From the NCBI GenBank assembly GCA_947498315.1, contig CANMLD010000003.1, positions 429 to 64,428 on the forward strand: a DNA stretch of 64,000 bases, given 5' to 3'. Positions 1,603 through 60,623 of the stretch are shown one piece after another. Each line of letters begins with the position of its first letter. Positions within the stretch are counted from its first letter, which is position 1. The stretch is from Pseudomonadota bacterium (GTDB lineage: Bacteria; Myxococcota_A; UBA9042; GCA-2863065). The notes beneath the pieces are model-generated. The model was not told the DNA's origin and searched no databases. It worked only from the letters and a program-made list of their open reading frames with translations. Position numbers and translations under genes: made by a program.

Positions 1603-1899
1603 TCTCCGTCAACCCCCACTCGCACACCGTCAATTCCGGCACGCCTCGACGTGCCTTGTGTAGAGGAATTCAACACTCGTCCCCAGCGTGCCGTGGCCAC
1701 TTGCCGACGTGCCTACCCTGGCCGCGCGACCTAACGGCTTGGAATCAACAAGCTCCTCGAGATCGGCGGTGAGTTGGCAGGCAGAGGCCCCGTCGCCGGA
1801 GACCTTGGCGTAATTCTTGCAGAGCTAAAGCCCCCGCCGCCCCCTCCCTCGACGGTGACTTCGCGTGATCGCCCCACGCGCCGAAGGATACAAAGCCCC

Positions 1900-4800: not shown

Positions 4801-6075
4801 GGGCAGCAGTTCGAGATCAGTGGGACCCAAGCCCACCGCGTGAAGATCCTCGACACCGACACACTGTTCAACCTCATTGACGGCTCCTGGAAGGCGCAAG
4901 CCAGCGGGATCGAAGAAGATCTCTTCAGCGTCTGGGGCACCGGCGACGACCGACTCTGGGCCGTCGGCGCCCGCGGCCGCATCGCGCACCGCAAGGGCGG
5001 CGCCTGGTTCCCGCAGTTCTCGCCCGTCACATCGACGCTCCGCGGCGTCTCCGGCGCCGGCCCGAACTTCGCTCTCGCGGTCGGCGATGGCGGCACCATC
5101 GTCGCTTTCGACGGCACTCAGTGGCTCGTCGAACCCTCCGGCACCACGGCCGACCTGATGGCGACGTGTGGCACCGGCCCCTACCACAGCTTCGCGGTAG
5201 GGACAGGTACCGCGCTCTATCGCGACGAGACTGGCTGGCACCCGCTCCCGAACACGCCCCCCGTCGCCTTCCGTGGCGCCTATTGCCCGGCGCCGACGAC
5301 GCTCTGGGCTGTCGGTGATGACGGATTGCTCTGGACCTTCGATCGTCTCACGGGCGTCTGGTCCAGTGAGTCACTGACGAGCGGGCAGGGCATCGCGCTG
5401 AACGCCATCGCGGGTCGTTCAGCGAGCGACGTCTGGATCGTTGGCTCGCTCGGGACCATCTTGCACCGTACCGCCCCGGGCCAGGTCACTCGTCACGAGT
5501 CCGGCACCGTGGTGACGCTGCACGCCATCGCTCTGGCTGCAGACGGTCGGGCGGCCGCCGTGGGGGCCCGCGGCGCCCTCCTCACCTGGGACGGGCTCGG
5601 CTGGGCGCGAGGGACCAGTGAGACCCACGCCGGCGACTTGCGCGGAGTCGCGTTCCTCGACGACCCCGAGGTGGGTGCCATCGCCGCCGGATCTCAAGCC
5701 GTCACACTCGGGCCTATGCTCAGCTTCCCACGACTCCATGATCCGGCCGTAACCTCCCTGACCGGTGGCTCTTTCGAGTACCACGTCCAGTGGGACACCC
5801 TCCCGGGAGCGCTGCCGACCTTCAACTTCATCGAGATCACGGCCTTCGATTTCCCGGTCTGGTGGACCGTCGTCGAAGCCCAGTCCCAGGAAGTCACCTA
5901 CCCGAACCTCATGGCCATTCAGGGGATCTCGCCGTTCATCTCGCCGTCGCCTTTGCTCACGGTGCGCCGAATCCTCAAGCCCGGCGTCACGGTCGACAAC
6001 TTCGACTTCTGGGACACGTACGACCCGTGGGACTGGCAGAGCTGGGCGGAGGATGCGGTCTTCATCTCGCCGTGA
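1900..6075 (+). CDS. Large lipoprotein with ~6 IPT/TIG-like Ig domains, a Cys-rich module and a C-terminal beta-propeller-like repeat region
   Basis: Start ATG at 1900 gives MRMKPLSSRTLHLTAALLLGLGLTGC (signal peptide + lipobox). Six repeats of the pattern 'I.sldP..G...GGt.VTi.G.GF......V.FGg' are IPT/TIG-like. Cys-rich block CAPCADAADCGDGYQCFDIAGEGPRCALSCQNDAQCPEGYACG. C-terminal repeats 'LW/VWAVG..G.I.HR...W' typical of Myxococcota beta-propeller repeats. Strong GC3 bias. Confidence 0.7.
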   Translation: MRMKPLSSRTLHLTAALLLGLGLTGCAEIVRDFVGEQVDGADGVVVPPDDTADPGQVIPDPDPADNDLRITSLDPMQGRTGGAELVTIAGEGYQDGMKVYFGSTLAAEVDVLSEYVVHVRTPAHAPGPVDLRIVRQDGAETVRLNAFKFKDAIRVDELNPTSGPREGGTAVTVRGEGFTKETRVLIDGRLLVDSRVVDGRTILGIAPPGSRAGAVDVLAFTDWTNATAHGAYRYAEAPRIDLIEPAIGSTTSTTLVTLIGPGLSKSARLAFGDVEANIVSVREDGVVARVAAQPAGVVDVSVVTADGETIAPGAFAFVDGGMTPALLTVWPLTGPESGGTMVAFGLSGVFGTPEVRFGGLPAPLVHFDGATLVVRAPAGEGETPMVVFADGATLTAASPFVYTRTASIANVAPSSGSTQGGELVTLKGEGFPVGASVLFGGVPAIIVDGSPVKLVVRTPVGSPGAVPVRVSGGDVDVTLPAGFTYTAPGGPVLFAVQPNTGGIAGGTLLRFYGSGFDAATEVKFANKVLPNIEVISPTELRARSIRADEPSTVDVRLTWAASPSHPAGEQLLGDAYTYFDPSSPYGGSWGPAIRGAMNITVLDLTTTEPVTAAFVILGSDPSTPYQGFTDDRGQIIFSGIGLEGPQMVTASKLDYTAYSVVEYDAENVTVHLIPFYPSTSSPGGGGGGGGEPLVTPTIEGRVLGLGKYIVPPPKPCSYMAQKGLVGVDGTASCAPCADAADCGDGYQCFDIAGEGPRCALSCQNDAQCPEGYACGAGVSGSAACIPDPGRRAAYCVTTNHALWEDPVPAPGQIILGGDTSKAWADANTYYKMNTRFGPLAVICLGGVVRDENDLAGSFVPLAMGVARSLDMKSGDVITGLDVMLDIPLRKDVPVRLDGAPLWYVDVFGAEVPTNVRFRVALDFGAEGYWTVRDETRAGVGDFLLDRQPENLGGKLDGVSYEFLAEVTGQQFEISGTQAHRVKILDTDTLFNLIDGSWKAQASGIEEDLFSVWGTGDDRLWAVGARGRIAHRKGGAWFPQFSPVTSTLRGVSGAGPNFALAVGDGGTIVAFDGTQWLVEPSGTTADLMATCGTGPYHSFAVGTGTALYRDETGWHPLPNTPPVAFRGAYCPAPTTLWAVGDDGLLWTFDRLTGVWSSESLTSGQGIALNAIAGRSASDVWIVGSLGTILHRTAPGQVTRHESGTVVTLHAIALAADGRAAAVGARGALLTWDGLGWARGTSETHAGDLRGVAFLDDPEVGAIAAGSQAVTLGPMLSFPRLHDPAVTSLTGGSFEYHVQWDTLPGALPTFNFIEITAFDFPVWWTVVEAQSQEVTYPNLMAIQGISPFISPSPLLTVRRILKPGVTVDNFDFWDTYDPWDWQSWAEDAVFISP

Positions 6076-6078
6076 GGT

Positions 6079-6321
6079 TCAGCGGAAGATCGGATCCGCC
6101 GACGTCGATTGCATCGCGGGGAGGAAAGACTTCTTGAGTCTGAGCAACGGATCGAATCTCGCCGCCTGACGCGCATCGGTCCACGTCGCTTGGGGGCGGC
6201 GCATCTCGCCGTCGATGAGTTGTTCGCCGAAGTCGTAGAACTTGGCCTTCTCGGGGCGCGCATCATCAGCAAACGCGAGGGCAGGGGTCAGTAGCAGCAT
6301 CAGCGGTAGCAGCAGGCGCAT
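6079..6321 (-). CDS. Small secreted protein (80 aa), GltF/NfsF-like by size and position (inferred); paralog of 7099..7350
   Basis: ATG at 6321..6319 with GAGG ~7 nt upstream. MRLLLPLMLLLTPALAFA is a signal peptide. Mature part KAKFYDFGEQLIDGE..TDARQ..FDPLLRLKKSFLPAM is conserved with the 83-aa ORF at 7099..7350. Confidence 0.6.
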   Translation of the reverse strand: MRLLLPLMLLLTPALAFADDARPEKAKFYDFGEQLIDGEMRRPQATWTDARQAARFDPLLRLKKSFLPAMQSTSADPIFR

Positions 6322-6437
6322 GAGAGACCTCGGAAGGTAGGGGTGATGACGTCGCCGTCGCGCAAGCGCGCCACGGGCAGGCGGATTCCTAAAGACGCGC
6401 GATGCCACGTCGCGATCTCGAGTCCCCCGAAGAAAGT

Positions 6438-7031
6438 TCAAACGCCCAGAAGATTCAGGCCCGCGGCCAGCAGGATGGCGCCGATAACGCCGAAGAGCGC
6501 GATCCGGTAGGGGATCCCGTTCGTCAGCCGTGCCGGATCGACGTCCGTGAGGACGCGACTCTTCGGCTGATACCAAATGGGCTGGCCAGGGACGAGGCGA
6601 ACCTCCGTGACGTGGTAGCGGGCGCCTTCCACGCGGCGCTTGTCGGCGTCTGGATCGCCATCGGAGCGGCCGGGGAGGGCGGCCAGCTCGGCGTCGACCT
6701 TCAGCCGAAGCTCAACGGGCAGACCGTTATAGTCCGTGGTCCACTCATCGCCGCGGGCGGGGCCGAGAGCAAGCTCGGTTCCGGTGAGGTCGATGGGCAC
6801 CTCGCGGCTCTCCGAGGGGATCCACATGCCGAACGCGCCCCACTCGGCGCCTTCGAGGCCGTCGTCCACACCGGCGTCGAGACGACGACGCTGTACGGTC
6901 CAACTTCGGAAGACCGGGACCCCGACCTCGTCACTTGGGACGATGCGGCCCGACAGCCACGGGGGTCTATAGCGGAAGACTCGACGCGTCCAAACCAAGG
7001 CGACCACGATGGACGCGGCACCGAGGCACAA
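6438..7031 (-). CDS. Membrane protein with N- and C-terminal TM helices flanking a beta-rich core (DUF3592-like topology)
   Basis: N-terminus MCLGAASIVVALVWTRRVF and C-terminus IPYRIALFGVIGAILLAAGLNLLGV are both hydrophobic. Lies between the two small secreted paralogs on the same strand. Confidence 0.45.
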   Translation of the reverse strand: MCLGAASIVVALVWTRRVFRYRPPWLSGRIVPSDEVGVPVFRSWTVQRRRLDAGVDDGLEGAEWGAFGMWIPSESREVPIDLTGTELALGPARGDEWTTDYNGLPVELRLKVDAELAALPGRSDGDPDADKRRVEGARYHVTEVRLVPGQPIWYQPKSRVLTDVDPARLTNGIPYRIALFGVIGAILLAAGLNLLGV

Positions 7032-7098
7032 AAAGACGATGGCCGACAGTGAGATGGACAGGGGGCCGCTTCCGCAGCGTGGTGGCCGAAACCAACCG

Positions 7099-7350
7099 CT
7101 ACTTGAAGACGCGGTCCTTACTGGTCTGGAACATGGCCGGCAGGAACGACTTCTTCAGGCTGAGCAGGCGGTCGAACTTCGCCTTCTGGCGAGCGTCCGT
7201 GTAGAGCGCCGTCGGCTTCTTGATCTCGCCGTCGATGAGCTGGTCGCTGAAGTCGTAGAACTTCGCCTTTTCGCCGGAACCTTCCGGGGGGGCCGCGAGA
7301 GCAGCGCTAGAGGCAGTCAGGAAGAAAGCGAGAGTCAGGAGTCGGCGCAT
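7099..7350 (-). CDS. Small secreted protein (83 aa), paralog of 6079..6321; GltF/NfsF-like by size and position (inferred)
   Basis: ATG at 7350 with GGAGG 7 nt upstream. Signal peptide MRRLLTLAFFLTASSAALAAP. Shares the motif KAKFYDFSDQLIDGE..TDARQKAKFDRLLSLKKSFLPAM with its paralog. Even the nucleotide context around both start codons is conserved (gcgcatgaga.acctc). Confidence 0.65.
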   Translation of the reverse strand: MRRLLTLAFFLTASSAALAAPPEGSGEKAKFYDFSDQLIDGEIKKPTALYTDARQKAKFDRLLSLKKSFLPAMFQTSKDRVFK

Positions 7351-7408
7351 GAGAACCTCCGTGGTTCGTGCTTCAGACTAAAGCGTACGCAGCGTCACTT
7401 GTAAAGTG

Positions 7409-8971
7409 TCAGACCTGACCGCCGCCCGCGGGGGCGGGTTGGACAGCCGGCTCGGGGGCCGGGGCGGGCTCGGCAGGAGCGGGCTCAGGTGCCTTCGGGG
7501 CGTCGCCTTCGGGCGCCTTCGGGGCGTCGCCTTCGGGCGCCTTCGGGGCGTCGCCTTCCGGAGCGGTGCCGCCTTCCGGCGCGCCCTCTTCCGGCATCTT
7601 CATCTCTGTCGGTTGATCGAAGAGGCCCTGCTTCACGGCGTCGTCGAGTGCTTTTGCGTTCATCGCCGCTGGGTGTGTCGGGGGCAGGTTGCCCTCCTTA
7701 ACGTAGCGGCTGTAGAACTCGATGGCCTTGATGGTGTCTTCCTTCGTGCCCTTCTTCTGATAGAGCTTGCCGATCTCCTCATAGAGGTTGACGCGACGGC
7801 CATCGAGCTTGATGGCCTTCTCGTAGCTGGCGATCGACTCGTCGAACTTGTTCAAGCCGAGCAGGCAGGTGCCGAGGCCCACGATGGCTTCGACGTTGTT
7901 GCTTTCGAGCTTGAGCACGCTGTCGAAACGCTCTTTGGCCCCTTCGTAGTTCAAGAACTCGAGGTAGATCTTGCCGAGGTTCAGGTGCGCCGCGACGTTG
8001 GCCGGGTCGAGCTTGATGGCCGTCGTGAAGTGCTTGACCGCCAGCGGGAGATTGTTCGTGCGGACGTAGACCGTCCCCACGTTCGTGTGGGCTTCGACCG
8101 AGTTCGGGTCGAGCGTCAGCACCTTCTGCTTGAAGATCCACTCCGCGAAGTTGAGTTGCCCCGCCTGGAGGAAGACGAGGCCGCGCGAGTTGAGCGCGGT
8201 GACGTTCTCCGGGTCGGTGATGAGGACCTGCTTGACGTGCTCTTCGGCGCGGTCCGACTGGCCCTTGACGAGCCAGTAGAGTGCGAGGCCGTTGTTGGCG
8301 GGGACGTTCTCGAAGTCCTGGGCGATGACCTCGTCGAACGTGGCTTTCGACTTCCCGAGCAGCTGCTCGGATTCCGCGATCTTACCGGTCTCGATGAGGT
8401 TCTTCGCCTTGGCGAGGTAGATCTTACCAACGAAGGCCTTGGCGTCCGCGCTCTCCGGGTTCGCCTTGATCGCGCGCTGGTAGGCCTCGAGGGCCTTGTC
8501 CGCCTGACCCTGCTTCTCGAAGACGGTGCCGATGTTGAAGTACGGCTCGAGGAAGGAGGGGTCGATCTCAATCGCCTTCTCGAATGACGCCAGCGCCGCC
8601 GAGTAGTCGGGCGGCACCGACAGCGATGACTGGACGCCCTTGCGGAACTCGTCCTGAGCATCACGCTTCACGCCCTCGACGTAGACCGCTTCGGACTCCG
8701 CGTAGCCGGCCGACTTGCTCTCGAGGTCGATACACTTGCTGTTGTCACAGACCCAGCCTGGGCCAAGCTTCGACTGGCAGTCCGACGTCTCCTTGCACTC
8801 GAAGCCGGGGGGCGCCTCGGACTCGGTCGTCTTCAACTTCCCGTCGTCGACCGGCTTGTCGACCGGGGTGGTCGTGCAAGCGACGCCTGCGAACAGAAAG
8901 GCCGCCAAGGCGGTGAGCTGGATGAACAGAGGCTGAACGGCCGCCGTCGCGTTCTGGATGAAGTCACGCAT
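7409..8971 (-). CDS. TPR-repeat lipoprotein (520 aa) with a C-terminal APEGDAPK repeat tail; GltE/NfsE-like position
   Basis: Signal + lipobox (LFAGVAC). Multiple TPR-like repeats (A..Y..AIK..P.....Y.N.G.....G). Low-complexity C-terminus encoded by perfect 24-bp DNA repeats. Its start lies 3 nt from the stop of the upstream TPR gene. Confidence 0.75.
   Translation of the reverse strand: MRDFIQNATAAVQPLFIQLTALAAFLFAGVACTTTPVDKPVDDGKLKTTESEAPPGFECKETSDCQSKLGPGWVCDNSKCIDLESKSAGYAESEAVYVEGVKRDAQDEFRKGVQSSLSVPPDYSAALASFEKAIEIDPSFLEPYFNIGTVFEKQGQADKALEAYQRAIKANPESADAKAFVGKIYLAKAKNLIETGKIAESEQLLGKSKATFDEVIAQDFENVPANNGLALYWLVKGQSDRAEEHVKQVLITDPENVTALNSRGLVFLQAGQLNFAEWIFKQKVLTLDPNSVEAHTNVGTVYVRTNNLPLAVKHFTTAIKLDPANVAAHLNLGKIYLEFLNYEGAKERFDSVLKLESNNVEAIVGLGTCLLGLNKFDESIASYEKAIKLDGRRVNLYEEIGKLYQKKGTKEDTIKAIEFYSRYVKEGNLPPTHPAAMNAKALDDAVKQGLFDQPTEMKMPEEGAPEGGTAPEGDAPKAPEGDAPKAPEGDAPKAPEPAPAEPAPAPEPAVQPAPAGGGQV
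7489..7562. repeat. Perfect tandem repeat, 24-bp unit (gccttcggggcgtcgccttcgggc) x3, encoding (APEGDAPK)n in the TPR lipoprotein C-terminus
   Basis: Read directly from sequence at 7491-7514, 7515-7538 and 7539-7562. Confidence 0.85.
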
Positions 8972-8974
8972 GGC

Positions 8975-11900
8975 TTAGTTCGCTCCTTCCGCTTTCTTGA
9001 CGGGGCGTAGCATGTCCACCGCGGTGTTGCCGCGCTTGAGGAAGCGCACGATGTTGCCCGAGAGCAGAGTGTCTTGCGTGTGCTCCGCGGTCAGCTGCTT
9101 GTTCAGCGGGCTGTCGCCGGCGACGGGGAAGCTGTCCGGGTCCTTCTTGTGGGTGTAGATGCCGGCATCCTTCGCGCACTGGTTATAGACCCCCTTCTCG
9201 TGAGCGACCATGAGCGCGCCCTTGAGGAGGATGAGCGCCTTCTCGTTGATCGGGTCCGCGAAAGTCTGGAGCGCCGCACGGTACTGGGTCTCGCCGTCGG
9301 TTCCGAGGAGCACGTCGGGGATGGGCACCGAGTCGAGCTCCTCCACGAACTTGTAGTAGAGGAGTCCGTTGCGGAAGGCCGCGCAGCCGAGCCAGTAGGC
9401 CGAGCCCATGTTGAACACGCCGTCGAAGGACGCCTCCGCTCGCTGGTGGAGCTCGGCTTTCTTCTTCAGCGCCTCCATGAGCGCGTTGATGTTCATCGTC
9501 GCCGGGATACGCGCGTCGTCGAAATCCTGGAAGGTGTAGTCGGCGGCCCAGTAGGCAGCCTGCGCGGCGTACTCCTGAGCGAAGCCACGGTTCTCGGGGT
9601 TTGGGTCGTTCTTGCCGTTATTGGCGTACTCGTTCACCGCTTTGGTGAAGTAGTCCGTGGCCTTCTTGCGGCTGGTGTAGACCTTCTTGGTCGGCGCACC
9701 GACGGCGTTCTTGGCGTTCTTCGCGACCTGCTCCTTCTCATCGAGAGCGCGGAGGATGTCACCGGCGCGCGACCAGCCCTGGACCTTGAGGCCGGCTTCA
9801 CCCGAGTACTTCGCGGCGAACGCGTCGTAGTGGGTGACCGCCTTTTTGAGCGACTTCTCGTCGGCCATCTTCTCGAGCAGGTTGCCGATCTTGAAGAAGG
9901 CGTTCGGGGCACGTTCGTGCTTCGGGTAGACCTTGAGGAACTTCTCGAGCGCCGCGATGGCCCCGGCGTGATCGTTGGTCGCTTCGCGAATGAGCGAGGC
10001 GTTGATCATGGCGTCCGGCGTGTCCTTGGCGTCCTTGAACTTCTCCATCTGGAGGAAGGCGTCAGCCGACTCTGCGAAGCGCGTCTGCGACTCGTAAAGC
10101 ACGCCGATCTGGAACTGCGCTTCCGGCGCGACCGACTGGCCCTTGAAGTTCTTCACAATAGACTCGTAGGTCGCGACGGCTTCCTTGGTGCGCTTGGCAC
10201 GCTCGTACAGGAATGCGAGGTTGTAGGTGGCCTTGGCGACCATCTCGCGATCCTTCGACTTGCCGAACTCGGCGACGAGCTGCTTCAGACGGCCGATGGC
10301 GTCTTCCACGCGTTTGGCCTTCATGAGCGCGACCGCGTCCTCGTTGATGGCGATGGCGATGTAGGTGCTGGCCTGCTCGTCCGTGATGAACGGGTTCTTA
10401 GTCGCCTTGAGCTTGCGGGCCCACTCTTCGACCTTGTCCCAACGAGCGAGCTTCGAGTAGGCCTCCATGATGGTGACGGCCGCGACCGTCGCCAGCTTGT
10501 GCCTCGAGTCGTACTCGAAGATCTTCTGGAGACGTTGAACGGCCTCGGCGAACTGGCCATGCTTGTAGTAGGTGTCGGCGGCCAGATACATGACCTCCGG
10601 GATCTGCTCGCCGCGCTTCGGATACTTCTTGATGAAGGCCGCGTCCTTGCGGAGCTCGAGGAGCAGGTTGACGTAGCTGTCGGCGGCGTCGACGTAGGCG
10701 CGCTCGAGTGGGTGCAAGTCCGACTTTTGGATGGTCTCGCTCATCGAGGCCTTCCATTCGTCTTCGCTCAGCTTCTTCTTCTCGATCGAGCCGGTGCCCC
10801 CCTTGCCGCCATCAACGCACTCGCGGACGCCCTGCTTACACATCTCTTCGTACGACGCGTAGATGATTCCTAGCGCGGCGTCTTCGACGAACTGACCCTT
10901 CTTGTCGCGCTTGATGACCTCTTGGTACGACTTGATGGCGCCCGCGTAGTCCTTCAGCATCCCGTATTGGATTTCGCCGAGGTTGAAGTTGATGACGTAG
11001 GCCTTCTCGCTGTCCGGGAAACGCGACAGGAACTGCGCATAGTCGCCCGCAGCCTTCTCGTAGAGGTCTTTTGCCAGGCCTGCGTTCTTTTTGTCGTCCG
11101 CTTTCTGGCCCGACTCGTGCCAACCGACGGACATCGACGCCATCTCGTTCTCGGTGAGCGTGTTGGCTTCAGCGACGGCCTCGGTGTTGGCATTGTTGGT
11201 CGACATCCACGACCCATCCGGCTGGAAGTAGGCCCACGCGCGACGCACCTCCTTCTCGGTCTCTGCGGCGTCGTTGACCTTGCGACGCACTTCGAGGAGG
11301 CGCGCGAACCATTGCGCCGCCTTCGCGTTCGACGGGCGGGTCTCGAGGAAGTGATTGAAGAGCTCGGTCGCTTCCTTGTCCTTGTCGAAGCCGATGTAGA
11401 GGTCAGCGAGCTTCTCCATCTTCTCCCAGACGGGATCGCCCTTGGTAAGGACGCGCTCGAAGTATTCGAGCGCTTCGCGCCAGGAGTCATCCATCTCGGC
11501 CCACGTCTTCACGAGGTCATCGAGAGCCTGATCGCGGAAGCTGATTTGGCCGGAGGCGGTCCCGATGTTCTCGACGACCTTCTGGAAGGTATCGATCGTC
11601 TTCCGGAACTCGCGGAGGTTGAAGTACACCCAGCCCAGCTTGTAGAGGGCGTAGTTGAGCATGGGTGAGGTCGGGAAGTTCGTGATGATCTTCTCGTAGT
11701 TCGTCTTCGCGTAATAGAGCGAGTCCGTCTCGAAGAAGTGTTCACCGAGCGCCAGGAAGGCCTTGGGTAGCTGCGGCGACTGCGGGTAGGTCTGAACCAG
11801 CTTCTGCAGGTACTGCACCGCCTCCTTGAGAAGGTTGCGGTCCTGCATCTCCTTGCCCTGCTCGAGGGCACCGCGACCGAGGTAATAGAGGATCTCGTCG

Positions 11901-12370
11901 AGGCGGGCGTAGTCGGGGAACTCCTGAATCACGCGCTTGTAGTACCCGAGCGCTGTCGCGTAGTCCTGCTTGGGTTCGACGGGCGCGATGGCAAGGCGCT
12001 TCTGCTCGAAGGCATCCGAGTCCTTGTCGAACTTGGCGCGGGTCTTCAGGTACTCGAACTTCGACTGCTCCCAGTACGACTCGGCGAGCCGGAAGTAGAT
12101 GTCTGCCTTGTTCTTGTACAGCGGCTGGTCGCGGAGCAGCTGCTCCATGCGGCCAATGTTCTGCCGCCGACCCTGGTCGATCTTCTCCATCGCGACGAGC
12201 TGCTCGGGCGTGTACGCCGAGTTCTCGAAGTCGGACAGGCTGAAGGTGGACTTCTTCAGGGGCTGGTTTTGACCGGGCGGTTCGCCGCCGCCAGGCGGGG
12301 GAGGCTCTTGGGCGAAGCTGGTGCCGGCGATGAGCAGGAACGGTAGCAGTAGGTGCAGTGGCCGACGCAT
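8975..12370 (-). CDS. Large periplasmic TPR-repeat protein (~1130 aa), GltD/NfsD (AgmU)-like by size, composition and gene order
   Basis: Start ATG at 12370..12368 (MRRPLHLLLPFLLIAGTSFAQ signal peptide) with GAGGTG upstream. Entire length rich in TPR-like helical repeats (YY..G..Y....Y..A...F). Stop at 8975 is 3 nt from the next gene's start. Confidence 0.7.
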   Translation of the reverse strand: MRRPLHLLLPFLLIAGTSFAQEPPPPGGGEPPGQNQPLKKSTFSLSDFENSAYTPEQLVAMEKIDQGRRQNIGRMEQLLRDQPLYKNKADIYFRLAESYWEQSKFEYLKTRAKFDKDSDAFEQKRLAIAPVEPKQDYATALGYYKRVIQEFPDYARLDEILYYLGRGALEQGKEMQDRNLLKEAVQYLQKLVQTYPQSPQLPKAFLALGEHFFETDSLYYAKTNYEKIITNFPTSPMLNYALYKLGWVYFNLREFRKTIDTFQKVVENIGTASGQISFRDQALDDLVKTWAEMDDSWREALEYFERVLTKGDPVWEKMEKLADLYIGFDKDKEATELFNHFLETRPSNAKAAQWFARLLEVRRKVNDAAETEKEVRRAWAYFQPDGSWMSTNNANTEAVAEANTLTENEMASMSVGWHESGQKADDKKNAGLAKDLYEKAAGDYAQFLSRFPDSEKAYVINFNLGEIQYGMLKDYAGAIKSYQEVIKRDKKGQFVEDAALGIIYASYEEMCKQGVRECVDGGKGGTGSIEKKKLSEDEWKASMSETIQKSDLHPLERAYVDAADSYVNLLLELRKDAAFIKKYPKRGEQIPEVMYLAADTYYKHGQFAEAVQRLQKIFEYDSRHKLATVAAVTIMEAYSKLARWDKVEEWARKLKATKNPFITDEQASTYIAIAINEDAVALMKAKRVEDAIGRLKQLVAEFGKSKDREMVAKATYNLAFLYERAKRTKEAVATYESIVKNFKGQSVAPEAQFQIGVLYESQTRFAESADAFLQMEKFKDAKDTPDAMINASLIREATNDHAGAIAALEKFLKVYPKHERAPNAFFKIGNLLEKMADEKSLKKAVTHYDAFAAKYSGEAGLKVQGWSRAGDILRALDEKEQVAKNAKNAVGAPTKKVYTSRKKATDYFTKAVNEYANNGKNDPNPENRGFAQEYAAQAAYWAADYTFQDFDDARIPATMNINALMEALKKKAELHQRAEASFDGVFNMGSAYWLGCAAFRNGLLYYKFVEELDSVPIPDVLLGTDGETQYRAALQTFADPINEKALILLKGALMVAHEKGVYNQCAKDAGIYTHKKDPDSFPVAGDSPLNKQLTAEHTQDTLLSGNIVRFLKRGNTAVDMLRPVKKAEGAN

Positions 12371-12513
12371 GGTTTTCACCTCATGAAGCGGGTGCTGGGG
12401 ACGCCCGACACCCGGAATCAGCACGAGCGGTGGCTCGTGAAGAGCAGTAGTTCAACGGAGTTTGGGCATGCCCAGCCTGAAGGACACACCGTGATTGTGA
12501 GGGCAGGCCGACG

Positions 12514-14361
12514 TTACTGCTTCGCGCAGCGCGAGGTCAGCTTCGAGCGGAAGCCACGGATCTCGTCGCCCCAGTACTCGCCTTCGTATTTCCACGCCAT
12601 CGAGTCACCACCAGCGATGGCTTGGCTGCCGCCCGACTCACCAACCATCTCTTCTGGCGCGGTGCCACCTTGCAGCTTCTGCATCTCGAGATCGGTGCGC
12701 TGGGTCGTGATGTCGATCTCGAGCTCCGTCTTCTTGACGGCATACTCCGCGAGCTCGGCCTCGACCTGCTTCATCAACTGCTGGACCTTGATGCCCGCTT
12801 CATTGAGGCGGCTCTGCCGCAGGGAGCCGAGCTTGGCGAGGAGGTCCGAGCCGAACTGCCCGAGCGCGGATTGCTCGCCAGTTACGTACGCCTCCTCCTT
12901 CTCGATCTGACGGACCGTTCGGTAGAGGTTGTAGAACTCCACGTTGGCGAGGACCGGGCGCACGAGTCGCTTATCGAGCTCGAAGGTGGGGGCACCTTCG
13001 ACGATGCCGACGAGCGCGTTCCAGTAGTCCTGCGGGGTGCGCAGCTCCTGAACCATCTTCTTGAGCGGGATCGACAGGGCACTGACCCGTTCGTCGAACT
13101 GCTTGATGGCTTGCTCGGCGCGTTCCACGTAACAGAGGTTGACGTAGATGGTCGCTTCGAGGATCCAGAGCTCTGGGTAGAAGTAGTGCTGGAAATATGG
13201 CGAGTGCAGCGCCTGAAAGGTGCCGAGCGCGCGCTCGTAGTCACCTTTCAGGAAGAAGGTCCAGGCGGACTCGTAGAAGGCTGTCGCCAGCTTCGGTGAG
13301 TCGGTAGGGACCTTGCGATAGTAGTAGACGGCCGCGTCGAAGTTCTCGGCCTCGTAGGCGATACGAGCGAGAGCGAGGTAGCTCAGTGTCCGGACCTCGG
13401 GGTCTACGTCGTCGAGGATCTCCGTGGCGTTGATGGCGCGCTGGAAGTTTTCAACTGCCGACTTGTACAGGTTGTTTTGCGTCTGTACGAGGCCCGTTAG
13501 GTAAAGGGCGCGAGGGTACTCGGGCGCGTCGGTGGACACGGCGGCGAAGAAATCCAGCGCCTTCGTGAAGTTGTTGTAGTCGTAAAAGAACTCGCCGAGG
13601 AAGTAGTTGAACTCGTCCTGGAAGCGGCGGCTGAAGTTCGTGACCGAGAACTCAGTGAGCTTCTCGAGGTCCGGCGGCGAGTAGTTGATCTGCTTGCGCA
13701 GCGCGCGGAGCTCCCAGAAGGCCTGCTGGAAGAAGGGCTTCTCTGGCCCTTCGAGCAAGACGTCGACGAGGTAGTTGGCCGAAGACTGAAAGAGCTCGCA
13801 CTGGTTGAGCGCGTGGGCAATGCCGTACCACGCGGTGTAGTACTCGTCGCTACCGCGCTGGTAACCACCCTGCGTGATGAAGTCGAGGAAGGTCTGGATC
13901 GCGCCCACGCAGTTCTCGCGGCGGGCGAGGTCCATGCCCTTCTTCAGGATGCCGTCGGCAAACGCTCGGCGCTGCGACTCCTCGGCCTTGGCGGCTTCGC
14001 CCGCGAGGCGCTGGGCCTCTTCGCGTTGCTTCGCTTCGAGGGCGGCCTTCTCCTCCGGCGTCATCTCTTGCACCGGCGGCGGCTCGTTCTGCGGCTTGAC
14101 TGCCGACGCTCCCCCGTAGGTCTGCGGGGTCTTGAGCATGTACTTCAAGACCTCCTCGGTTAGCCCGGCCTTCTTGAGCTCGAGGATCTCGTTCACCGTG
14201 AGGTTGAAGACGGTGCGGTCCCGATCGATAGCCTTGATCATCTCGTCGCCGGATACGCCGATGCGCGCGAGTGTAATGATCTCCTGCACCGAGATAGCCT
14301 GGGCGGGCAGGGCGGTGAGGAGCACCGAGCTGGCCGACAGGGCGATGAACATCTTTTTCAT
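12514..14361 (-). CDS. Secreted TPR-like repeat protein (615 aa), GltC/NfsC-like position
   Basis: Signal peptide MKKMFIALSASSVLLTALPAQA. Followed by a coiled-coil/Ala-Glu-rich linker and TPR-like repeats (NLYKSAVENFQRAI, YEAENFDAAVYYYRKV). Confidence 0.6.
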   Translation of the reverse strand: MKKMFIALSASSVLLTALPAQAISVQEIITLARIGVSGDEMIKAIDRDRTVFNLTVNEILELKKAGLTEEVLKYMLKTPQTYGGASAVKPQNEPPPVQEMTPEEKAALEAKQREEAQRLAGEAAKAEESQRRAFADGILKKGMDLARRENCVGAIQTFLDFITQGGYQRGSDEYYTAWYGIAHALNQCELFQSSANYLVDVLLEGPEKPFFQQAFWELRALRKQINYSPPDLEKLTEFSVTNFSRRFQDEFNYFLGEFFYDYNNFTKALDFFAAVSTDAPEYPRALYLTGLVQTQNNLYKSAVENFQRAINATEILDDVDPEVRTLSYLALARIAYEAENFDAAVYYYRKVPTDSPKLATAFYESAWTFFLKGDYERALGTFQALHSPYFQHYFYPELWILEATIYVNLCYVERAEQAIKQFDERVSALSIPLKKMVQELRTPQDYWNALVGIVEGAPTFELDKRLVRPVLANVEFYNLYRTVRQIEKEEAYVTGEQSALGQFGSDLLAKLGSLRQSRLNEAGIKVQQLMKQVEAELAEYAVKKTELEIDITTQRTDLEMQKLQGGTAPEEMVGESGGSQAIAGGDSMAWKYEGEYWGDEIRGFRSKLTSRCAKQ

Positions 14362-14481
14362 GGTCGCCTCTTCACCGTTGACCGGCGAGATGGTGGCGTT
14401 CGACCTTCAGCCGAAACGCAGGAACGGGGCACTCGGTTCAGGCGACCTGGGCTTTCGTCCAACTCGCCGCTCGGCTCAGGC

Positions 14482-15207
14482 TCAGTTGGGCTCGGGCGTC
14501 CAGAAGCCCAAGCCCAGCGTGATCTCGGCCGCGTGCGAGAGCCCGCGGCTCTCGTCTTCTGCATTACGGCCATTGTAGAACGTGTGCCGGTAGTCGAGGC
14601 GGATGGCGATGAAGTCCCATACGAAGAAGCGTACCGTGGCGCCGACGTTGCCGCCGACGTCGATACGACTCTGCTCAGTCACGGTGGCGCCTGTCTTGGC
14701 GACCTTCGTGCCGAGGACGTCGATGCCGAGTGCGATACCGAAGTCGAAGTGGGCGAGCTTGGTCGCGAACGCACCGAATTTGCCGTAGACCGGCGTCCAC
14801 ATCACGCCCGCGCCGGCTTTCCACTCGAGGGCCTGGGGGAGGTTCACTTCGTACGAGCCCGGGGCGAGGGTCGTCTCGATGAAGTCCTCTAGCTCGGAGT
14901 TGACGCCGATGAGGTAGGCGCCCGACACCTCGAGGGCGAAGTCCTCGGAGAAGTAGTAGTCGTACTTGAGGCCGACCGGGTAGTAGACGAAGAAGTCGTC
15001 GTTTGGGATGACGCCGCCGAAGATGCTTATCTCGTGACGGCCATCCTTCTGGAACAAGCGTTTGTGGATGTTCGTGATGTCCCGCTGTTCGCCCCAGTAG
15101 AGGTCGAACTCATGCTCGAGCGGGTCTTCGGCCGACGCCGCGAGCGGCAGACAGGTGAACACGGCCAGCAGCGCGGCCGCTCGGCGAATCGGCGATGACG
15201 TGAACAT
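14482..15207 (-). CDS. Outer-membrane beta-barrel protein (241 aa), GltA/GltB/NfsA/NfsB-like by class
   Basis: Internal ATG at 15207 (AAGGAGAG upstream) gives signal peptide MFTSSPIRRAAALLAVFTCLPLAASA. Alternating hydrophobic beta-strand pattern (ISIFGGVIP, FALEVSGAYLIGV, RIDVGGNVGATVRFFVWDFIAIRLDYRHTFY, AEITLGLGFWT) with aromatic-rich girdles. Confidence 0.6.
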   Translation of the reverse strand: MFTSSPIRRAAALLAVFTCLPLAASAEDPLEHEFDLYWGEQRDITNIHKRLFQKDGRHEISIFGGVIPNDDFFVYYPVGLKYDYYFSEDFALEVSGAYLIGVNSELEDFIETTLAPGSYEVNLPQALEWKAGAGVMWTPVYGKFGAFATKLAHFDFGIALGIDVLGTKVAKTGATVTEQSRIDVGGNVGATVRFFVWDFIAIRLDYRHTFYNGRNAEDESRGLSHAAEITLGLGFWTPEPN

Positions 15208-15314
15208 GGAGCGGAGCTCTCCTTGGCTTGAAGCTCGACAGAGCGGGGTCACAGTGTTTTTCGAAGCGTGTGCGGCCGTGAGGCCGTAGGTCTTTGAGTC
15301 GTTCATGAGGGCGG

Positions 15315-17072
15315 TCACGGGCAGCTACGCGGGTCGTCTGGGTCGACGCAAACTGGCTGGGTGACGCAGTCGCCTGCGCAGCATACGTTGCCGACGCCGC
15401 ACGGCGAGCCTTGGGCGGGTGCAATGCAGAGCTTCGACTCAGGGTCACAGCGGATGCCGCAGACCGCACCTGCGCCGGTGCCGCAGTCGGCATCGGCCTG
15501 ACACGGTCGGACCACGGGGAGGCGACCGTCGAGGTTCCCGTCGAAGATGAAGGGAACGATCTCGTCGGTCTTCGTGACGACGTCTTTCTTGAGCGTGAGC
15601 TGGCCTGCGAGCGCGTAGTCGTCGCCCTTGGGTGACGCCGCCGCCGACGTGACCGGGTCGGCCGTGTACTCTGAGATGCCGGTCACGACGCCCCAGTGGC
15701 CGGACAGGCTGTAGCGGAGCCGGGTCATGGCTTCGGTCATGACCTCGGCTCGCTCCGAGCTCAGTCGGTTCGAGTTGATGAAGGTGTAGTTGCCGCCCGT
15801 CAGGCAGGCGAGCTGCTGCATTCGGGCGTCGTGCTCCGGGTAGCCGGGCGACTGGAAGTGCACGAAGGAGAGGTGCAGGTCGTTCGGTTGCTGATTGGCG
15901 CGGCGCTCGGCGATGTACGCCTCCACCTTCGTGCGAAGCGCGTTGAAGGAGACCGCGCTCGCACAGGGAGACTGTGCCGTCGGGCCTTCGCCTGCGCCGT
16001 TATTCGTGAAGCAGTGCTGGAAGTCGGTGCTCTCTGCAGTGCAGGTGTCGGTGCCGTCCGTTACGACGACGATGTGTCTCGCCACTTCGCCCTGCAGCTT
16101 CATGTAGTCGAAGCCGAGGTCGAGTGCGCTCCAGAGGTTGCTTCGACCGACACCACGGCTACCCAAGACCTGGTCCGAGAGCTGGTCGATGTAGAAGTCG
16201 TCGTCTACGAGACCGCCGAAGAACTTCTCGCGGCGAGTCGTGTAGCACTCCTTGCCCTTCTGCTCTTCCGTTGCCGCCGGTGCGTCCGCGTCGCACACGA
16301 TCTTGACGCCGACGTCTTCGTTGAACTGGAAGACGATGCTGCGGTCGTTGGAGTTCAAATCCTTGAGCAGCGTCTTGGCCGCCTGAAGTCGGAGCTCTTC
16401 GCTGTCGGACGCGCAATCCTGGAGCGACGCGGCGTCATAGGCGTCAGGCTTCCCTTCGATGCACGTCGGGCGAAGCGCGCCGGCAGGCACAAGTCCATCA
16501 CCGGCACCCAGAGTGGAGCCGCTCTGATCGACGAGGATGGCGACACCAATCGAGGTCCCGCGCGGCTCGCCGTTGACACGGTCGACGTAGACGAGACCGG
16601 ATGCGTCGACCGTATCCGAGGGGTCGGAACCCGCGCAGTTGCCGCCCTGATCGCCGCCCGAGTGCGACGAAATACAGTTCACGGAGAGGTCGAAGTCCTC
16701 CACGTTGACGGTGGAGCCAATGATGATCTGCTTGTCATCGACGACGTCGAGCCCTTCGCGGATCTGGCGGTCCCGGTCGACGAAGCCGTCATCGCGAGGC
16801 TTGCGCGCCGTCGATATCAGGTTGAAGTCGACGCGGACGTGAGTCGCGTCTCCACCACAAGCTGGTTCGAAGAGAGTCCCGCCCGCCTTCGTCGTCACCT
16901 TCTTCACGGGTGTTGCGCCGAGGACCTGGATGTTGTCGAAGCTGACGCGATTCGGGATGAACTGAGCGTTGTTGTCGCATGACGCGCCCAGAGCGGTGAA
17001 GGCCGCTCCAGCCATCAGGGCTCGGACGCCCTGCGCCCGGATGCGATCTCGGCTGCGTAGAAAGGGGAACAT
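15315..17072 (-). CDS. Lipoprotein with von Willebrand factor A domain and C-terminal Cys-rich module (586 aa)
   Basis: ATG at 17072 (GGAGG ~13 nt upstream) gives MFPFLRSRDRIRAQGVRALMAGAAFTALGASC (lipobox). MIDAS-type motif ILVDQSGST. C-terminal CQADADCGTGAGAVCGIRCDPESKLCIAPAQGSPCGVGNVCCAGDCVTQPVCVDPDDPRSCP. First gene of the minus-strand cluster. Confidence 0.6.
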   Translation of the reverse strand: MFPFLRSRDRIRAQGVRALMAGAAFTALGASCDNNAQFIPNRVSFDNIQVLGATPVKKVTTKAGGTLFEPACGGDATHVRVDFNLISTARKPRDDGFVDRDRQIREGLDVVDDKQIIIGSTVNVEDFDLSVNCISSHSGGDQGGNCAGSDPSDTVDASGLVYVDRVNGEPRGTSIGVAILVDQSGSTLGAGDGLVPAGALRPTCIEGKPDAYDAASLQDCASDSEELRLQAAKTLLKDLNSNDRSIVFQFNEDVGVKIVCDADAPAATEEQKGKECYTTRREKFFGGLVDDDFYIDQLSDQVLGSRGVGRSNLWSALDLGFDYMKLQGEVARHIVVVTDGTDTCTAESTDFQHCFTNNGAGEGPTAQSPCASAVSFNALRTKVEAYIAERRANQQPNDLHLSFVHFQSPGYPEHDARMQQLACLTGGNYTFINSNRLSSERAEVMTEAMTRLRYSLSGHWGVVTGISEYTADPVTSAAASPKGDDYALAGQLTLKKDVVTKTDEIVPFIFDGNLDGRLPVVRPCQADADCGTGAGAVCGIRCDPESKLCIAPAQGSPCGVGNVCCAGDCVTQPVCVDPDDPRSCP

Positions 17073-17220
17073 CGACGAAGGAGCCTCCGGGTGATTGGCC
17101 CAGTCGCCGGGGCGACGAGCCGGCGTATCTTGGTTGACACGAGGCTGACCCGTCAACCCCTGACTCGAACAGGCTTTCGAAAGCTCGTCGCTTTCCCGGA
17201 TCGAGTGGGCCCAGGAGGTT

Positions 17221-17422
17221 GCTGCTTTTGTGCCGTCGCTGGCCTTCGCGCTGCCACACGGGAGCGGCGTCAGCTGTCTGCGACACGTCCTCACGTACCT
17301 TTTGGTACGCTCCGTGCGTCTCCCCCTCGGGGGCGCGGTGGTTTCCCCCGCCGGCACGCGCAGGAACAGCCTTCCTTGCTCCCGGACGACATCGCTTCGG
17401 CCGGCTGGGTCCAAAAATTAGC
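17221..17422 (+). repeat. Copy A of a ~200-bp interspersed intergenic repeat with imperfect terminal inverted repeats (MITE-like or structured RNA candidate)
   Basis: Aligns over its whole length with 27780..27982 at roughly four-fifths identity by eye. Ends gctgcttttg... / ...ccaaaaattagc. GC-rich internal hairpins (ccccctcggggg). Sits in the divergent region between 17072 and 17604. Confidence 0.6.
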
Positions 17423-17603
17423 ACCCTTTTAGCTTGCGGGCGGATTCGTTCGTGCCAGTTCGGAATTGCTGGCGCTTTCGGGCGCTTCATCGTTGACCTT
17501 GCCGCCTCGACCTCTGTAGGGTATGGGCTCTTGCCCGCGGCACCTGGTGGCCCCGGACATCCACTCCGCTTTTCTTGGCGAGGCACCAGTGAGGAGGTTC
17601 TTG

Positions 17604-19745
17604 ATGTCGAATGCAGTGACCAGGTACAGTCGGTTTGCCGCGAGCGTGGGTCTGCTCATCTTCTCCGCGTGCGGCGGTGGTAGCGAAGACAGCGGCGGCG
17701 GCAGTGGAGGCTTCAACGTCTCTGACGACGGCGTCATTCAGGTATTCGTCGGGACGTCGCTGCTCAGCAATCCGAACGACGTACCTCCGCTCTCTTTCGA
17801 CAAGGGGGCTGTCTCTGTCGGCAGCTCTGCCGAAGGTCAGGTCCGTGTCCTGAACGTTGGCACCGGAGCGCTCAACATTCGGAAGGTTGCCTTCGGCTAC
17901 GAAGCTCCCGCTGAAGACGGCGGTGCGCCTGCGCTCCAGTTCGTCCGAGCGACGGCCTCGAGCGGTGACGTGACCGTGACGGGTGGCGAGCTCGAAGGCG
18001 TGCTTCTCGGGCCGGACGAAGAGCTCACGCTGTTCGTTAGATACACCCGCTTCGACGACGACATCGATCGCGTTGGTGGGCTCGTAATTGTGAGTGACAC
18101 GCTCGACGAGCGGTTCACTACCCTCACTATTCCAGTCCAAGTTGGCGGCGCCCTCCCCGTCGCCAACATCACTCCCCGCCTCGTCGACTTCCAGCAAGTC
18201 GCGGCAGGTGAGACCAAGACCCGTGAGATCACGATCTCCAACACGGGCGCGGCCGACCTCGAGATCCGCCAATTCAACTTCACTGGGCACCCGGACTTCC
18301 GCTTCCTGGCCTCGGCCGCGTCGGAGACCGTCGCGTACGAGCCGGATGGCGAGACCGTGACGTTCGACCCGCCCGTGTTGGTCAAGCCGCAGGCGGCCCT
18401 TAAGTTCAACGTCTCCTTCTCGCCGCAGGGCCCCGACCCCGCTGAAGGCGCCATCATCTTCTACACGAACGAGGCTACGCCGCAGCAGCAGGTCGATCTG
18501 ACCGGCAACGCGAATCGGCCTTGCATCCTCGTGACGCCGCAGACCGTGCAGTTCGGCGCCAAGCTCCTCGGTCAGCCGGCCGTTCTCCCGGTCGAGATCT
18601 CGTCTTGCGGTAACAAGGACCTCGAAGTCACGGGCATCGAGCTCAACGAGAACCCGACTGGCAACTACTCGCTCCAGTTCGCGGGGCTCCCGGGCGGCGT
18701 CGCGCCGTCGGCCGAAGCCAAGCTCACCATCCCGGTGAACCAGAAGGCGACCTTCAACGTCCAGTACATCCCGAACCGCGAGAACCCGATAGTCGATGGC
18801 AAGCCCGAGTTCGACACGGGCAACATCCTCATCACGTCGAACTCGTTCGAGGCCGAGGTGGATGTCGCCATTACCGGTATCGGCTCGAGCGTCGTGTGCC
18901 CGACCGCCGTCGGCAAGATCGCCGAGGGTGAGCAGGTCATCCCGCAGACGGTCCTCCACCTGTTCAGCGACCAGAGCTTCGCTCCCGCCGGCAGCAGCCT
19001 CGTCGAGCGCAAGTGGACGGTTCAGCAGCCGCCCGGGTCCGCGTCCGTGTTCGTGCCGTCGGACAAGTTTCCCAATCCGACCTTCGAGGCCAACGTCGCC
19101 GGGGCTTACAAGTTCAGCCTCGATGTCTGGGACAACAACAACGTCAAGAGCTGCGTCCCTTGGGAGTCGACGGTCCTGGTCATCCCCGACGAGGCCATCC
19201 ACGTCGAGCTCGTGTGGCGCACGCCGAACGACTCGGACGAGACCGACGAAGGCGCCGAAGCCGGCTCCGACGTCGATCTTCACTTCGTGCACACCAAGTA
19301 CGCGGTCGGCTCCGGATACGACGGGGACGGCGATGGCGTCGACGACCCGTGGTTCAACCAGCCCTTCGACTGCTTCTGGTTCACGCCGCAGCCGAACTGG
19401 GGCACGCTCGACCCGACGGCGGATGATGATCCGTCGCTTGATCGCGACGACACCGACGGCGCCGGCCCCGAGAACCTGAACCTCAACGTCCCGCAGAACG
19501 GCGCGGTCTACGGCGTTGGAGTTCACTACTGGTCGGATCATGAGTTCGGTGACGCTTACTGCACCGTTCGCATCTACATCTACTCGGAGCTCGTCGCCGA
19601 AGTGAAGGACGTCCGCCTGTCCAATCTGGACATGTGGGACGTTGCCACCATCGACTGGCCGTCCGCGAAGGTCACCTTCGTGCAGGGCGCTGGCGGGGCG
19701 TATAAGATCACCCCGAACTACCAGAACCCGAACTTCTCCGAGTGA
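17604..19745 (+). CDS. Lipoprotein with three ASH / choice-of-anchor-D-like Ig domains and a conserved ~300-aa C-terminal domain (713 aa); paralog 1
   Basis: ATG at 17604 with GGAGG 7 nt upstream. LLIFSACGGG lipobox. Ig-like repeats with the 'F..V.vG.t....i.I.NtG.a.L.i..i.ftG...F' signature. C-terminal domain (CPTAVGKIAEGEQVIPQT...PENLNL...VYGVGVHYWSD) is highly similar to the downstream paralog. Confidence 0.7.
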   Translation: MSNAVTRYSRFAASVGLLIFSACGGGSEDSGGGSGGFNVSDDGVIQVFVGTSLLSNPNDVPPLSFDKGAVSVGSSAEGQVRVLNVGTGALNIRKVAFGYEAPAEDGGAPALQFVRATASSGDVTVTGGELEGVLLGPDEELTLFVRYTRFDDDIDRVGGLVIVSDTLDERFTTLTIPVQVGGALPVANITPRLVDFQQVAAGETKTREITISNTGAADLEIRQFNFTGHPDFRFLASAASETVAYEPDGETVTFDPPVLVKPQAALKFNVSFSPQGPDPAEGAIIFYTNEATPQQQVDLTGNANRPCILVTPQTVQFGAKLLGQPAVLPVEISSCGNKDLEVTGIELNENPTGNYSLQFAGLPGGVAPSAEAKLTIPVNQKATFNVQYIPNRENPIVDGKPEFDTGNILITSNSFEAEVDVAITGIGSSVVCPTAVGKIAEGEQVIPQTVLHLFSDQSFAPAGSSLVERKWTVQQPPGSASVFVPSDKFPNPTFEANVAGAYKFSLDVWDNNNVKSCVPWESTVLVIPDEAIHVELVWRTPNDSDETDEGAEAGSDVDLHFVHTKYAVGSGYDGDGDGVDDPWFNQPFDCFWFTPQPNWGTLDPTADDDPSLDRDDTDGAGPENLNLNVPQNGAVYGVGVHYWSDHEFGDAYCTVRIYIYSELVAEVKDVRLSNLDMWDVATIDWPSAKVTFVQGAGGAYKITPNYQNPNFSE

Positions 19746-60437: not shown

Positions 60438-60623
60438 GAACGGTCCCCTTCTGCGTTCCTCTGCTTCGGCCCCCGGTGGGACCGGCGTCTTCACGCTTTC
60501 GACCCCCGCGGGGACCGAACCGATGGGGCCGGGCTAACCCCGGACACCCGCTCGACGGCGAGCGCCGAGCGTAACATCGTTTTGAATGCGGTGGTATGGG
60601 GCGACCGATCCCCAAAATCTGAA

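Follow-up and report, generated by a model that had tools for sequence, protein, structure and literature searches.

Myxococcus xanthus carries four gltD homologues, which belong to the Glt, Nfs, G4 and G5 systems, the last two being of unknown function (Luciano et al. 2011). Related gene sets have been catalogued in a fused K-B-A-C-D-E-F-G-H order in Anaeromyxobacter, as a C-D-E set without G in Haliangium, and as several Glt-like clusters, four of them listed, in Bdellovibrio (Luciano et al. 2011). The DNA considered here, called the window throughout, is a stretch of 64,000 nucleotides (nt) from an uncultured Myxococcota genome (GenBank assembly GCA_947498315.1, contig CANMLD010000003.1, positions 429 to 64,428) with the high GC content of 60–70 per cent. 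At 6079–17072 it holds a cluster of eight co-directional genes, all on the minus strand, whose order agrees with the fused Anaeromyxobacter arrangement and with M. xanthus nfsA-H. We read this operon, with a probability of roughly 0.62, as encoding those parts of a Glt/Nfs-class trans-envelope machine that lie in the outer membrane (OM) and the periplasm, a machine that would come with its own integrin-like surface adhesin. The genes are as follows:

15315–17072, minus strand: head gene, VWA lipoprotein of 585 amino acids (aa)
14482–15207, minus strand: outer-membrane beta-barrel, 241 aa
12514–14361, minus strand: C, GltC/NfsC-like secreted TPR protein, 615 aa
8975–12370, minus strand: D, GltD/NfsD-like secreted all-alpha scaffold, 1131 aa
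7409–8971, minus strand: E, GltE-like TPR lipoprotein, 520 aa
7099–7350, minus strand: F1, secreted GltF (CglF)-like protein, 83 aa
6438–7007, minus strand: small membrane protein, 189 aa (197 aa if translation starts at the TTG at 7031)
6079–6321, minus strand: F2, second secreted GltF-like copy, 80 aa

A first-pass annotation of the window had placed eight minus-strand genes here, and this is borne out by our own gene calls and by independent calls on an ENA contig (585, 241, 615, 1131, 512, 83, 189 and 80 aa). The length of E differs between the two (520 aa in the window, 512 aa in the ENA contig) because the copy number of a 24-nt tandem repeat differs; this repeat occupies 7491–7558 in 2.8 perfect copies, and its translation gives the APEGDAPK units of the protein's disordered, Pro/Ala/Glu-rich C-terminal tail. 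From the head gene to F2 the intergenic gaps computed from the coordinates are 107, 120, 143, 3, 58, 91 and 116 nt, with E starting 3 nt after D, so that the range of 3–145 nt given earlier stands at its lower end and comes down to 143 nt at its upper. A promoter and terminator scan found no terminator-like sites on the minus strand within the cluster. Signal peptides of the cleavable type are present on the barrel, C, D, F1 and F2. ENA and Logan metagenome contigs carry identical copies of the cluster, the ENA contig being 98–100 per cent identical apart from the repeat, and the nearest species-level relative among GTDB genomes is ‘Myxococcales bacterium MAG_44’ (JADMJS01), whose D protein is 95 per cent identical.

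The assignment of these genes is best followed through a second locus, L091, from an uncultured Myxococcota metagenome-assembled genome (MAG; GCA_054682455.1), in which a MIDAS adhesin, two barrels, C, D, E, F, GltG and GltH follow one another. Its proteins match the named families strongly (GltC-like 1.3e-62, GltE-like 1.3e-37, CglF/GltF 1.8e-20, GltG 3.9e-90 with FHA and AgmX/PglI C-terminal domains, and CglE/GltH at 97.5 bits, above its cut-off of 70), and the 448-aa adhesin is recognised both by the CglD model and by that for Bdellovibrio MIDAS adhesins; on these profile matches L091 is classed as a canonical Glt/Nfs-type cluster. By BLASTP the barrel, C, D, E and F of the window pair one-to-one and collinearly with genes of L091, and both clusters open with a VWA/MIDAS lipoprotein and go on with barrel(s) and then C, D, E and F. 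L091 differs in having two barrels, GltG (FHA plus a TonB-like domain) and GltH/CglE, where the window has a single barrel and neither of the other two.

Among the periplasmic proteins C gives the clearest match, to the gliding_GltC model NF033756 (2.1e-57, 195 bits), with residues 137–614 aligned to profile positions 119–621 of 622. This is not a generic TPR signal, since the TPR-rich D and E, run as a specificity control, give no match to NF033756; against C of L091, BLASTP returns 23 per cent identity over 451 aa (7e-30). For D there is no match to a GltD-named NCBIfam model even at E≤10, and the comparison runs through D of L091, with which it shares 25.7 per cent identity over 1097 aa (E 1.7e-93). 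The family is a large one: at least 292 full-length relatives of D are found in a protein collection clustered at 90 per cent, and an exhaustive profile search of 1.84 billion representatives returned 2435 proteins at E≤1e-30, of which the best 150 are mostly 1000–1250 aa long and align with the profile from end to end. One matching protein, P0163, lies in locus L091 (E 8e-156). An AlphaFold2 (AF2) model of D, with a pLDDT confidence score of 82, is all-alpha, with an N-terminal domain of long helices, a TPR array in the middle, a helical domain at the C-terminus and disordered tails, and the published architecture of GltD matches this fold (PMC11761067). D is accordingly assigned as a putative GltD/NfsD-type scaffold by way of L091 D and its modelled architecture rather than by way of the M. 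xanthus proteins. The PDB holds no structures of Glt proteins.

E matches the gliding_GltE model NF033758 at profile positions 67–353 of 411 (2.1e-30, 106 bits), and its sole BLASTP match in L091 is E (26 per cent over 418 aa, 9e-29); its lipobox, AGVAC, is weaker than that of the head protein. The two small secreted proteins match NF033764, gliding_CglF, with F1 at 6.3e-9 and 36 bits over profile positions 25–85 of 88, and F2 at 6.6e-7 and 29 bits; CglF is the older name of GltF (PMC4488436). Both resemble F of L091 (BLASTP 32–36 per cent over 47 aa, ~1e-11), and the family shares the motif KxKFYDFSDxLIDGExxKP...LLxLKKSF. F1 is the conserved copy, 75 per cent identical to F of the sister locus and to F of a distant locus. 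The sister species locus, L007, has a D protein 69 per cent identical to that of the window, and F2 is 51 per cent identical to F2 of L007 and 59 per cent identical to F1, F2 evolving faster than F1. A second F copy occurs in ~10 related loci.

Components of the C, D, E and F types are thus present in the window, as expected of the Glt/Nfs class, and the A/B-C-D-E-F order proposed in the first-pass annotation is upheld by the GltC match, the two CglF matches and the collinear matches in L091. That proposal was to fall if D and E resembled their namesakes only as generic TPR proteins and if the small proteins missed GltF; family-level similarity was found for D and E, and the GltF model was matched. 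The four departures from the canonical systems listed at the same time, namely one barrel, a VWA head gene, an F gene duplicated around a membrane protein and no motor genes in the window, are also confirmed.

The small membrane protein between the two F copies had been labelled as having two transmembrane segments, which is roughly right: hydropathy shows a clear C-terminal hydrophobic segment at 164–189, and the N-terminal one is only a short stretch. It has no Pfam or NCBIfam match. At the same position L007 has a weakly similar counterpart (E 5e-6) of 239 aa, with a clear hydrophobic segment at each end, and tblastn of the related loci confines the protein to the lineage of the window and, in diverged form, to its sister. 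The protein was considered as a stand-in for GltG or GltJ and rejected for lack of any signal of the TonB-like, FHA, Zn-ribbon or GYF kind.

The barrel stands in the GltA/GltB position and matches TIGR04565, OMP_myx_plus (1.8e-25, 89.8 bits, above the cut-off of 60), as well as Pfam OMP_b-brl. It matches both barrels of L091 by BLASTP, with 26 per cent identity over 201 aa to one of them (5e-13). The window has it in single copy; two to three tandem copies are seen in 29 of 68 related loci.

In the head protein a VWA domain stands between an N-terminal beta-sandwich and a further beta domain, and a Cys-rich tail follows. Its MIDAS motif reads D182-Q-S-G-S186 ... T338-D-G-T-D342, and its 23 cysteines comprise C32 of the lipobox LGASC and 22 others. 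Across 48 homologues the MIDAS residues and ~17 of the cysteines are invariant or nearly so, and 50 of the 51 sequences examined have a lipobox, typically ...[GAS]-C-D-S-T-A, ahead of the mature protein. The head proteins of two further loci, L092 and L093, are remote homologues (hhalign E 8e-16 and 2e-9). Lipoprotein, MIDAS-bearing VWA domain and many cysteines are all traits of the CglB type, and the same features define M. xanthus CglB and the C-terminal half of CglD (PMC9946355; CglD preprint); CglB is the VWA adhesin retained by the Glt OM platform (PMC9946355). No match to a CglB-named NCBIfam model came back, even at E≤10. A profile search with 48 head-protein sequences gave only the 10 proteins already known, within the 8000 word-sharing candidates that it covered.

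How far this arrangement extends was gauged with an alignment of D, used to scan one genome per GTDB species. The scan gave 95 relatives, of which 80 were kept, all of them uncultured MAGs labelled ‘Myxococcales’, ‘Deltaproteobacteria’ or ‘Myxococcota’. By tblastn the order VWA-barrel-C-D-E-F is present in ~80 species-level loci wherever the contig is long enough, and loci without some component are truncated contigs. Because this order recurs in ~80 independent species-level loci the arrangement is far beyond chance, and the module is conserved across ~90 uncultured Myxococcota species. In the MAG CALGHC01 two contigs, L051 and L074, each carry a C-D-E segment, with D proteins 36 and 37 per cent identical to that of the window; some genomes may hold two copies of the module, or this bin may be mixed. 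At L092:18248–23444, in a Myxococcota MAG, a VWA-headed cluster lies ~3 kb from genes for FlgB/C-type rod proteins, FliE and a FliF-FliG-like open reading frame (ORF). Flagellar genes are unusual for Myxococcota.

The conservation extends to neighbouring genes on the far side of the head gene:

17073–17603, no strand: intergenic region separating the divergent VWA and first choice-of-anchor-D genes, assigned by position
17604–19745, plus strand: choice-of-anchor-D (ASH-HYDIN) Ig-domain lipoprotein, 713 aa (NF012200 2.2e-20; Pfam Cep192_D4/HYDIN Ig)
20062–22272, plus strand: second choice-of-anchor-D lipoprotein, 736-aa ORF (NF012200 2.1e-14; K319L-like PKD)

The 713-aa protein, transcribed divergently from the cluster, has the lipobox FSAC followed by a Gly/Ser linker. 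The 736-aa ORF has LAGC as an internal lipobox, with a Gly linker after it, and shares a C-terminal domain with its 713-aa paralogue. Of 88 loci, 48 have choice-of-anchor-D genes beside the cluster, lying divergently upstream or on the same strand downstream of F, and the 713-aa neighbour is probably linked to the cluster in function. The promoters of the VWA unit and of the choice-of-anchor-D unit presumably sit in 17073–17603, where the promoter scan found no sigma-70-like consensus site.

Measured against described systems, the cluster is close in layout to M. xanthus Nfs (nfsA-H, MXAN_3371-3378), with which it was compared by description. Both are single co-directional operons in which barrel(s) are followed by C-D-E-F, protein sizes are similar (NfsD 1219 aa, NfsE 499 aa), and neither includes a motor, Nfs using the AglRQS encoded elsewhere. 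Nfs differs in having two barrels, the TonB-like connector NfsG, NfsH and no VWA lipoprotein, where the window has one barrel, a VWA/MIDAS head, a second F, the membrane protein and no G or H. With the Agl-Glt machinery and CglB the window shares a barrel platform, GltC, GltD, the GltE lipoprotein, GltF and a Cys-rich VWA/MIDAS OM lipoprotein; in that system, however, glt occupies two clusters, G1 and G2, neither cglB nor cglD is linked to them, and GltH, K, I, J and G are present in addition. Compared by description with CglB, the 585-aa head protein has an extra N-terminal beta-sandwich and a Cys-rich tail. Linkage of the kind seen here does not appear in the accounts of the M. xanthus adhesins: cglD is stated never to be encoded within gliding gene clusters (CglD preprint), and the relation reported for CglB is one of genomic co-occurrence, not linkage (PMC9946355).

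The clusters G4 (MXAN_1919-1923) and G5 (MXAN_1327-1331) of M. xanthus and Hoch_2490-2492 of Haliangium ochraceum are, again by description, extra clusters of the C/D/E/F type with functions unknown. The Haliangium set, a C-D-E set, resembles the window in having no adjacent GltG homologue, whereas G4 and G5 each have one, list no VWA gene and follow other gene orders. Bdellovibrio bacteriovorus also has several clusters per genome with B-C-D(-E)-F-G components, and these differ in carrying their own aglRQS-type motor genes in cis. Its MIDAS adhesins Bd0875 and Bd1483 bear lipoboxes (PMC11003981), and the literature found describes no link between such adhesins and the gliding clusters. Going by locus tags alone, Bd1483 of strain HD100, a MIDAS adhesin on which Tyson et al. 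(2024) did structural work, would lie near the Bd1474-1481 gliding cluster, two genes away.

The first-pass annotation had suggested a third, undescribed paralogous complex. ‘Third’ is overstated and the framing is wrong, because extra Glt-like clusters (G4, G5 and those of Bdellovibrio) were already listed in 2011 (Luciano et al. 2011); the organism is moreover an uncultured member of the Myxococcota and not Myxococcus, and the locus is not a new kind of machine. ‘Undescribed’ fares better for the VWA-headed subfamily: no published description was found of a VWA-headed module with choice-of-anchor-D lipoproteins beside it.

The working of the M. xanthus machine offers an analogy for how these proteins may be arranged. 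The beta-barrel would form the OM platform, with the GltC-like protein docked beneath it; the GltD-like scaffold would run below the OM and bind the GltE-like lipoprotein, and the small GltF-like protein(s) would bridge D to C. In the published contact model, GltABHK-CglB-GltC and GltCDEFGJ form the contacts, and GltF is the bridge between GltC and GltG's TonB-like domain (PMC11761067). The Cys-rich VWA/MIDAS lipoprotein would be the cargo, held by the platform and exposed at the cell surface as CglB is for Glt, and the flanking choice-of-anchor-D Ig-domain lipoproteins would be probable further surface partners. Energy would come from a proton channel of the TolQR/AglRQS type by way of a TonB-like inner-membrane protein of the GltG/GltJ type, encoded elsewhere in the genome; such coupling is suggested because relatives have a G/J gene in cis and because M. 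xanthus aglRQS is unlinked from glt and nfs (PMC3858216; Luciano et al. 2011). Adhesion or gliding-type surface transport would best fit the adhesin-like character of the conserved partners.

Several observations weigh against this proposal. There is only one barrel in the window, where Glt has GltA and GltB, a pair of barrels that stabilise one another. Scores stay below the NCBIfam equivalog cut-offs (195 versus 450 for GltC, 106 versus 225 for GltE, 36 and 29 versus 90 for CglF), and for this reason the window proteins are Glt-class homologues, not orthologues; such distance is unsurprising because GltC and NfsC share only 19 per cent identity within M. xanthus itself (PMC4488436). The GltE-model match of E is weak alone, because E scores about equally on MamA and PilW. 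No sequence similarity can be detected between the head protein and the MIDAS adhesin of L091. Most directly, homologues of MotA/ExbB, ExbD, TonB-like, Zn-ribbon/GYF and GltG/J/H/K/I proteins are absent from the 64-kb window, in which tblastn with four G/J-type proteins and one GltH gave no match and the only FHA/TonB Pfam signal is that of an FHA-sigma54 activator, and no G/J-type or motor genes lie within ±10 kb of the other ~80 subfamily loci, L007 excepted. Yet gltD, E and G have been reported as always clustered (Luciano et al. 2011).

The sister species is informative on this last point. Directly after F2, L007 encodes a 574-aa protein (16514–18238, plus strand) that matches GltG at 1.2e-31, the AgmX/PglI C-terminal model at 92 bits (cut-off 40) and TonB_C. 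The GltG/TonB-like match falls in its C-terminal half, with the N-terminal 310 aa beyond it, and the same is seen in L008 and L010. In L092 and L093, both found through representatives of D, the gene after F is GltJ-like (5.5e-21 and 3.3e-36), and the L093 protein has an MJ0042 zinc ribbon and a GYF domain. Since L007, L092 and L093 carry a G/J-like gene after F, the wider VWA-headed family appears, from its gene content, to be built to connect to a TonB-like inner-membrane protein, which in the window is not encoded in cis. Downstream of F2 the window has no remnant of a GltG-like gene. The position of the sister's GltG-like gene is taken by a convergent gene (1774–6075, plus strand) that stops 3 nt short of F2 and encodes a 1433-aa lipoprotein with five IPT/TIG domains along with choice-of-anchor-Z repeats and a Cys-rich segment; tblastn finds it only in the contig of this genome (L001).

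That no G/J-like gene is found in the window or, within ±10 kb, in the ~80 subfamily loci would also be expected of a static, motor-independent scaffold, in which the motor link has been lost in most species of the subfamily and the assembly simply displays the VWA adhesin and the neighbouring lipoproteins. Canonical and more distant VWA-headed clusters do retain the G/J gene in cis, and the best generic matches of D are to YbgF/CpoB-type and BamD-type TPR units of envelope proteins that work without a motor. We nevertheless hold a static scaffold to be doubtful. Absence in cis is not absence from the genome, as the unlinked aglRQS genes of M. xanthus illustrate; the sister species keeps its G-like gene directly after F2; and a GltF-like protein, the bridge from GltC to GltG in the published model (PMC11761067), has been kept at 75 per cent identity. 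At the other extreme, the cluster could be generic TPR, VWA and barrel genes brought together by chance, akin to Bat/aerotolerance or Tol-Pal accessory operons and bearing no particular relation to Glt/Nfs: Pfam by itself returns only generic TPR, OMP and VWA signals, E scores equally on MamA and PilW, and one relative has a BatA-DUF58-MoxR operon nearby. This is effectively excluded by a family-specific and near full-length GltC match (2e-57) that the other TPR proteins of the cluster lack, small proteins that match the CglF/GltF model, five components collinear with a cluster that has GltG and GltH, and a gene order kept in ~80 loci. The Bat genes lie on the opposite strand and in one lineage only, and with the GltC and GltF matches being specific, an aerotolerance role of the Bat/MoxR type was rejected.

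The operon could also serve, as Nfs does, to handle a polymer, moving or compacting surface polysaccharide such as spore coat, capsule or slime, with the VWA and Ig lipoproteins binding that polymer. The single-operon A/B-C-D-E-F layout is that of nfsA-H, and Agl-Nfs transports Exo glycan strands around spores (PMC3858216). Paralogues of the Glt class have diverged in function, G4 and G5 being dispensable for motility (Luciano et al. 2011), and in some relatives genes for a UDP-glucose dehydrogenase and a lysyl-PG synthase-like protein lie a few kb downstream. However, no polysaccharide synthesis or export genes of the Wza/Wzy/Wzx type are conserved beside the cluster in the loci examined, the extras that are conserved (the MIDAS VWA protein and Ig-like lipoproteins) are of the adhesin type, and Nfs itself has no VWA component, all of which make a polymer-handling role unlikely. 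A machine that carries a surface adhesin thus remains our preferred reading. Within it, we raise more tentatively the idea that the subfamily is a distinct functional class of Agl/Glt-type surface machine, with the MIDAS adhesin and Ig-like lipoproteins hard-wired as cargo and with a role other than gliding or spore coat formation, for example attachment to prey or particles, its motor and connector being borrowed from elsewhere in the genome or absent; such a class is conceivable, though we would not expect it. It might also retain an ancestral state in which adhesin and platform genes were linked, from before cglB became unlinked in Myxococcus.

Outside the cluster the window encodes sufBCDS, uvrA, a GT4 glycosyltransferase, hydrolases, a DUF4388 protein, the FHA-sigma54 activator, cyanophycin genes and large surface proteins. 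In a 2275-aa ORF at 44154–50981 (plus strand) Pfam TSP_3 (E 1e-278) marks 33 Ca-binding repeats of the thrombospondin type-3 kind, and across this ORF GC dips and AT skew is strongly positive; M. xanthus CglD also has a COMP/TSP-like Ca-binding region. At 29030–32767 (minus strand) a 1245-aa ORF annotated solely by three DUF4397 domains adjoins the gene for a DUF72 protein. The 717-aa protein with N-terminal DUF4388 adjoins the FHA-domain sigma-54 enhancer-binding protein at 51310–55394 (plus strand), a pair that is a typical myxobacterial regulatory module. Genes for a cyanophycin synthetase-like protein (950 aa), a cyanophycinase-type protein of peptidase family S51 and an isoaspartyl-dipeptidase-like amidohydrolase occupy 57642–63681 (minus strand), and a second Mur-ligase-type gene at 55895–57613 is grouped with them.

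The focal-adhesion machine of Myxococcus is the main bacterial model for how force from an inner-membrane motor is brought to a surface adhesin. Because neither cglB nor cglD is linked to the glt genes, the relation between adhesin and machine had to be worked out there by experiment. A VWA gene that heads a Glt-like operon in ~80 species is independent genomic support for the idea of a VWA adhesin being loaded on a Glt-type OM platform. Modules of the Glt class are diverse and widespread in uncultured Myxococcota, and the compact set of six to eight genes described here is one that would suit complex prediction or heterologous reconstitution.

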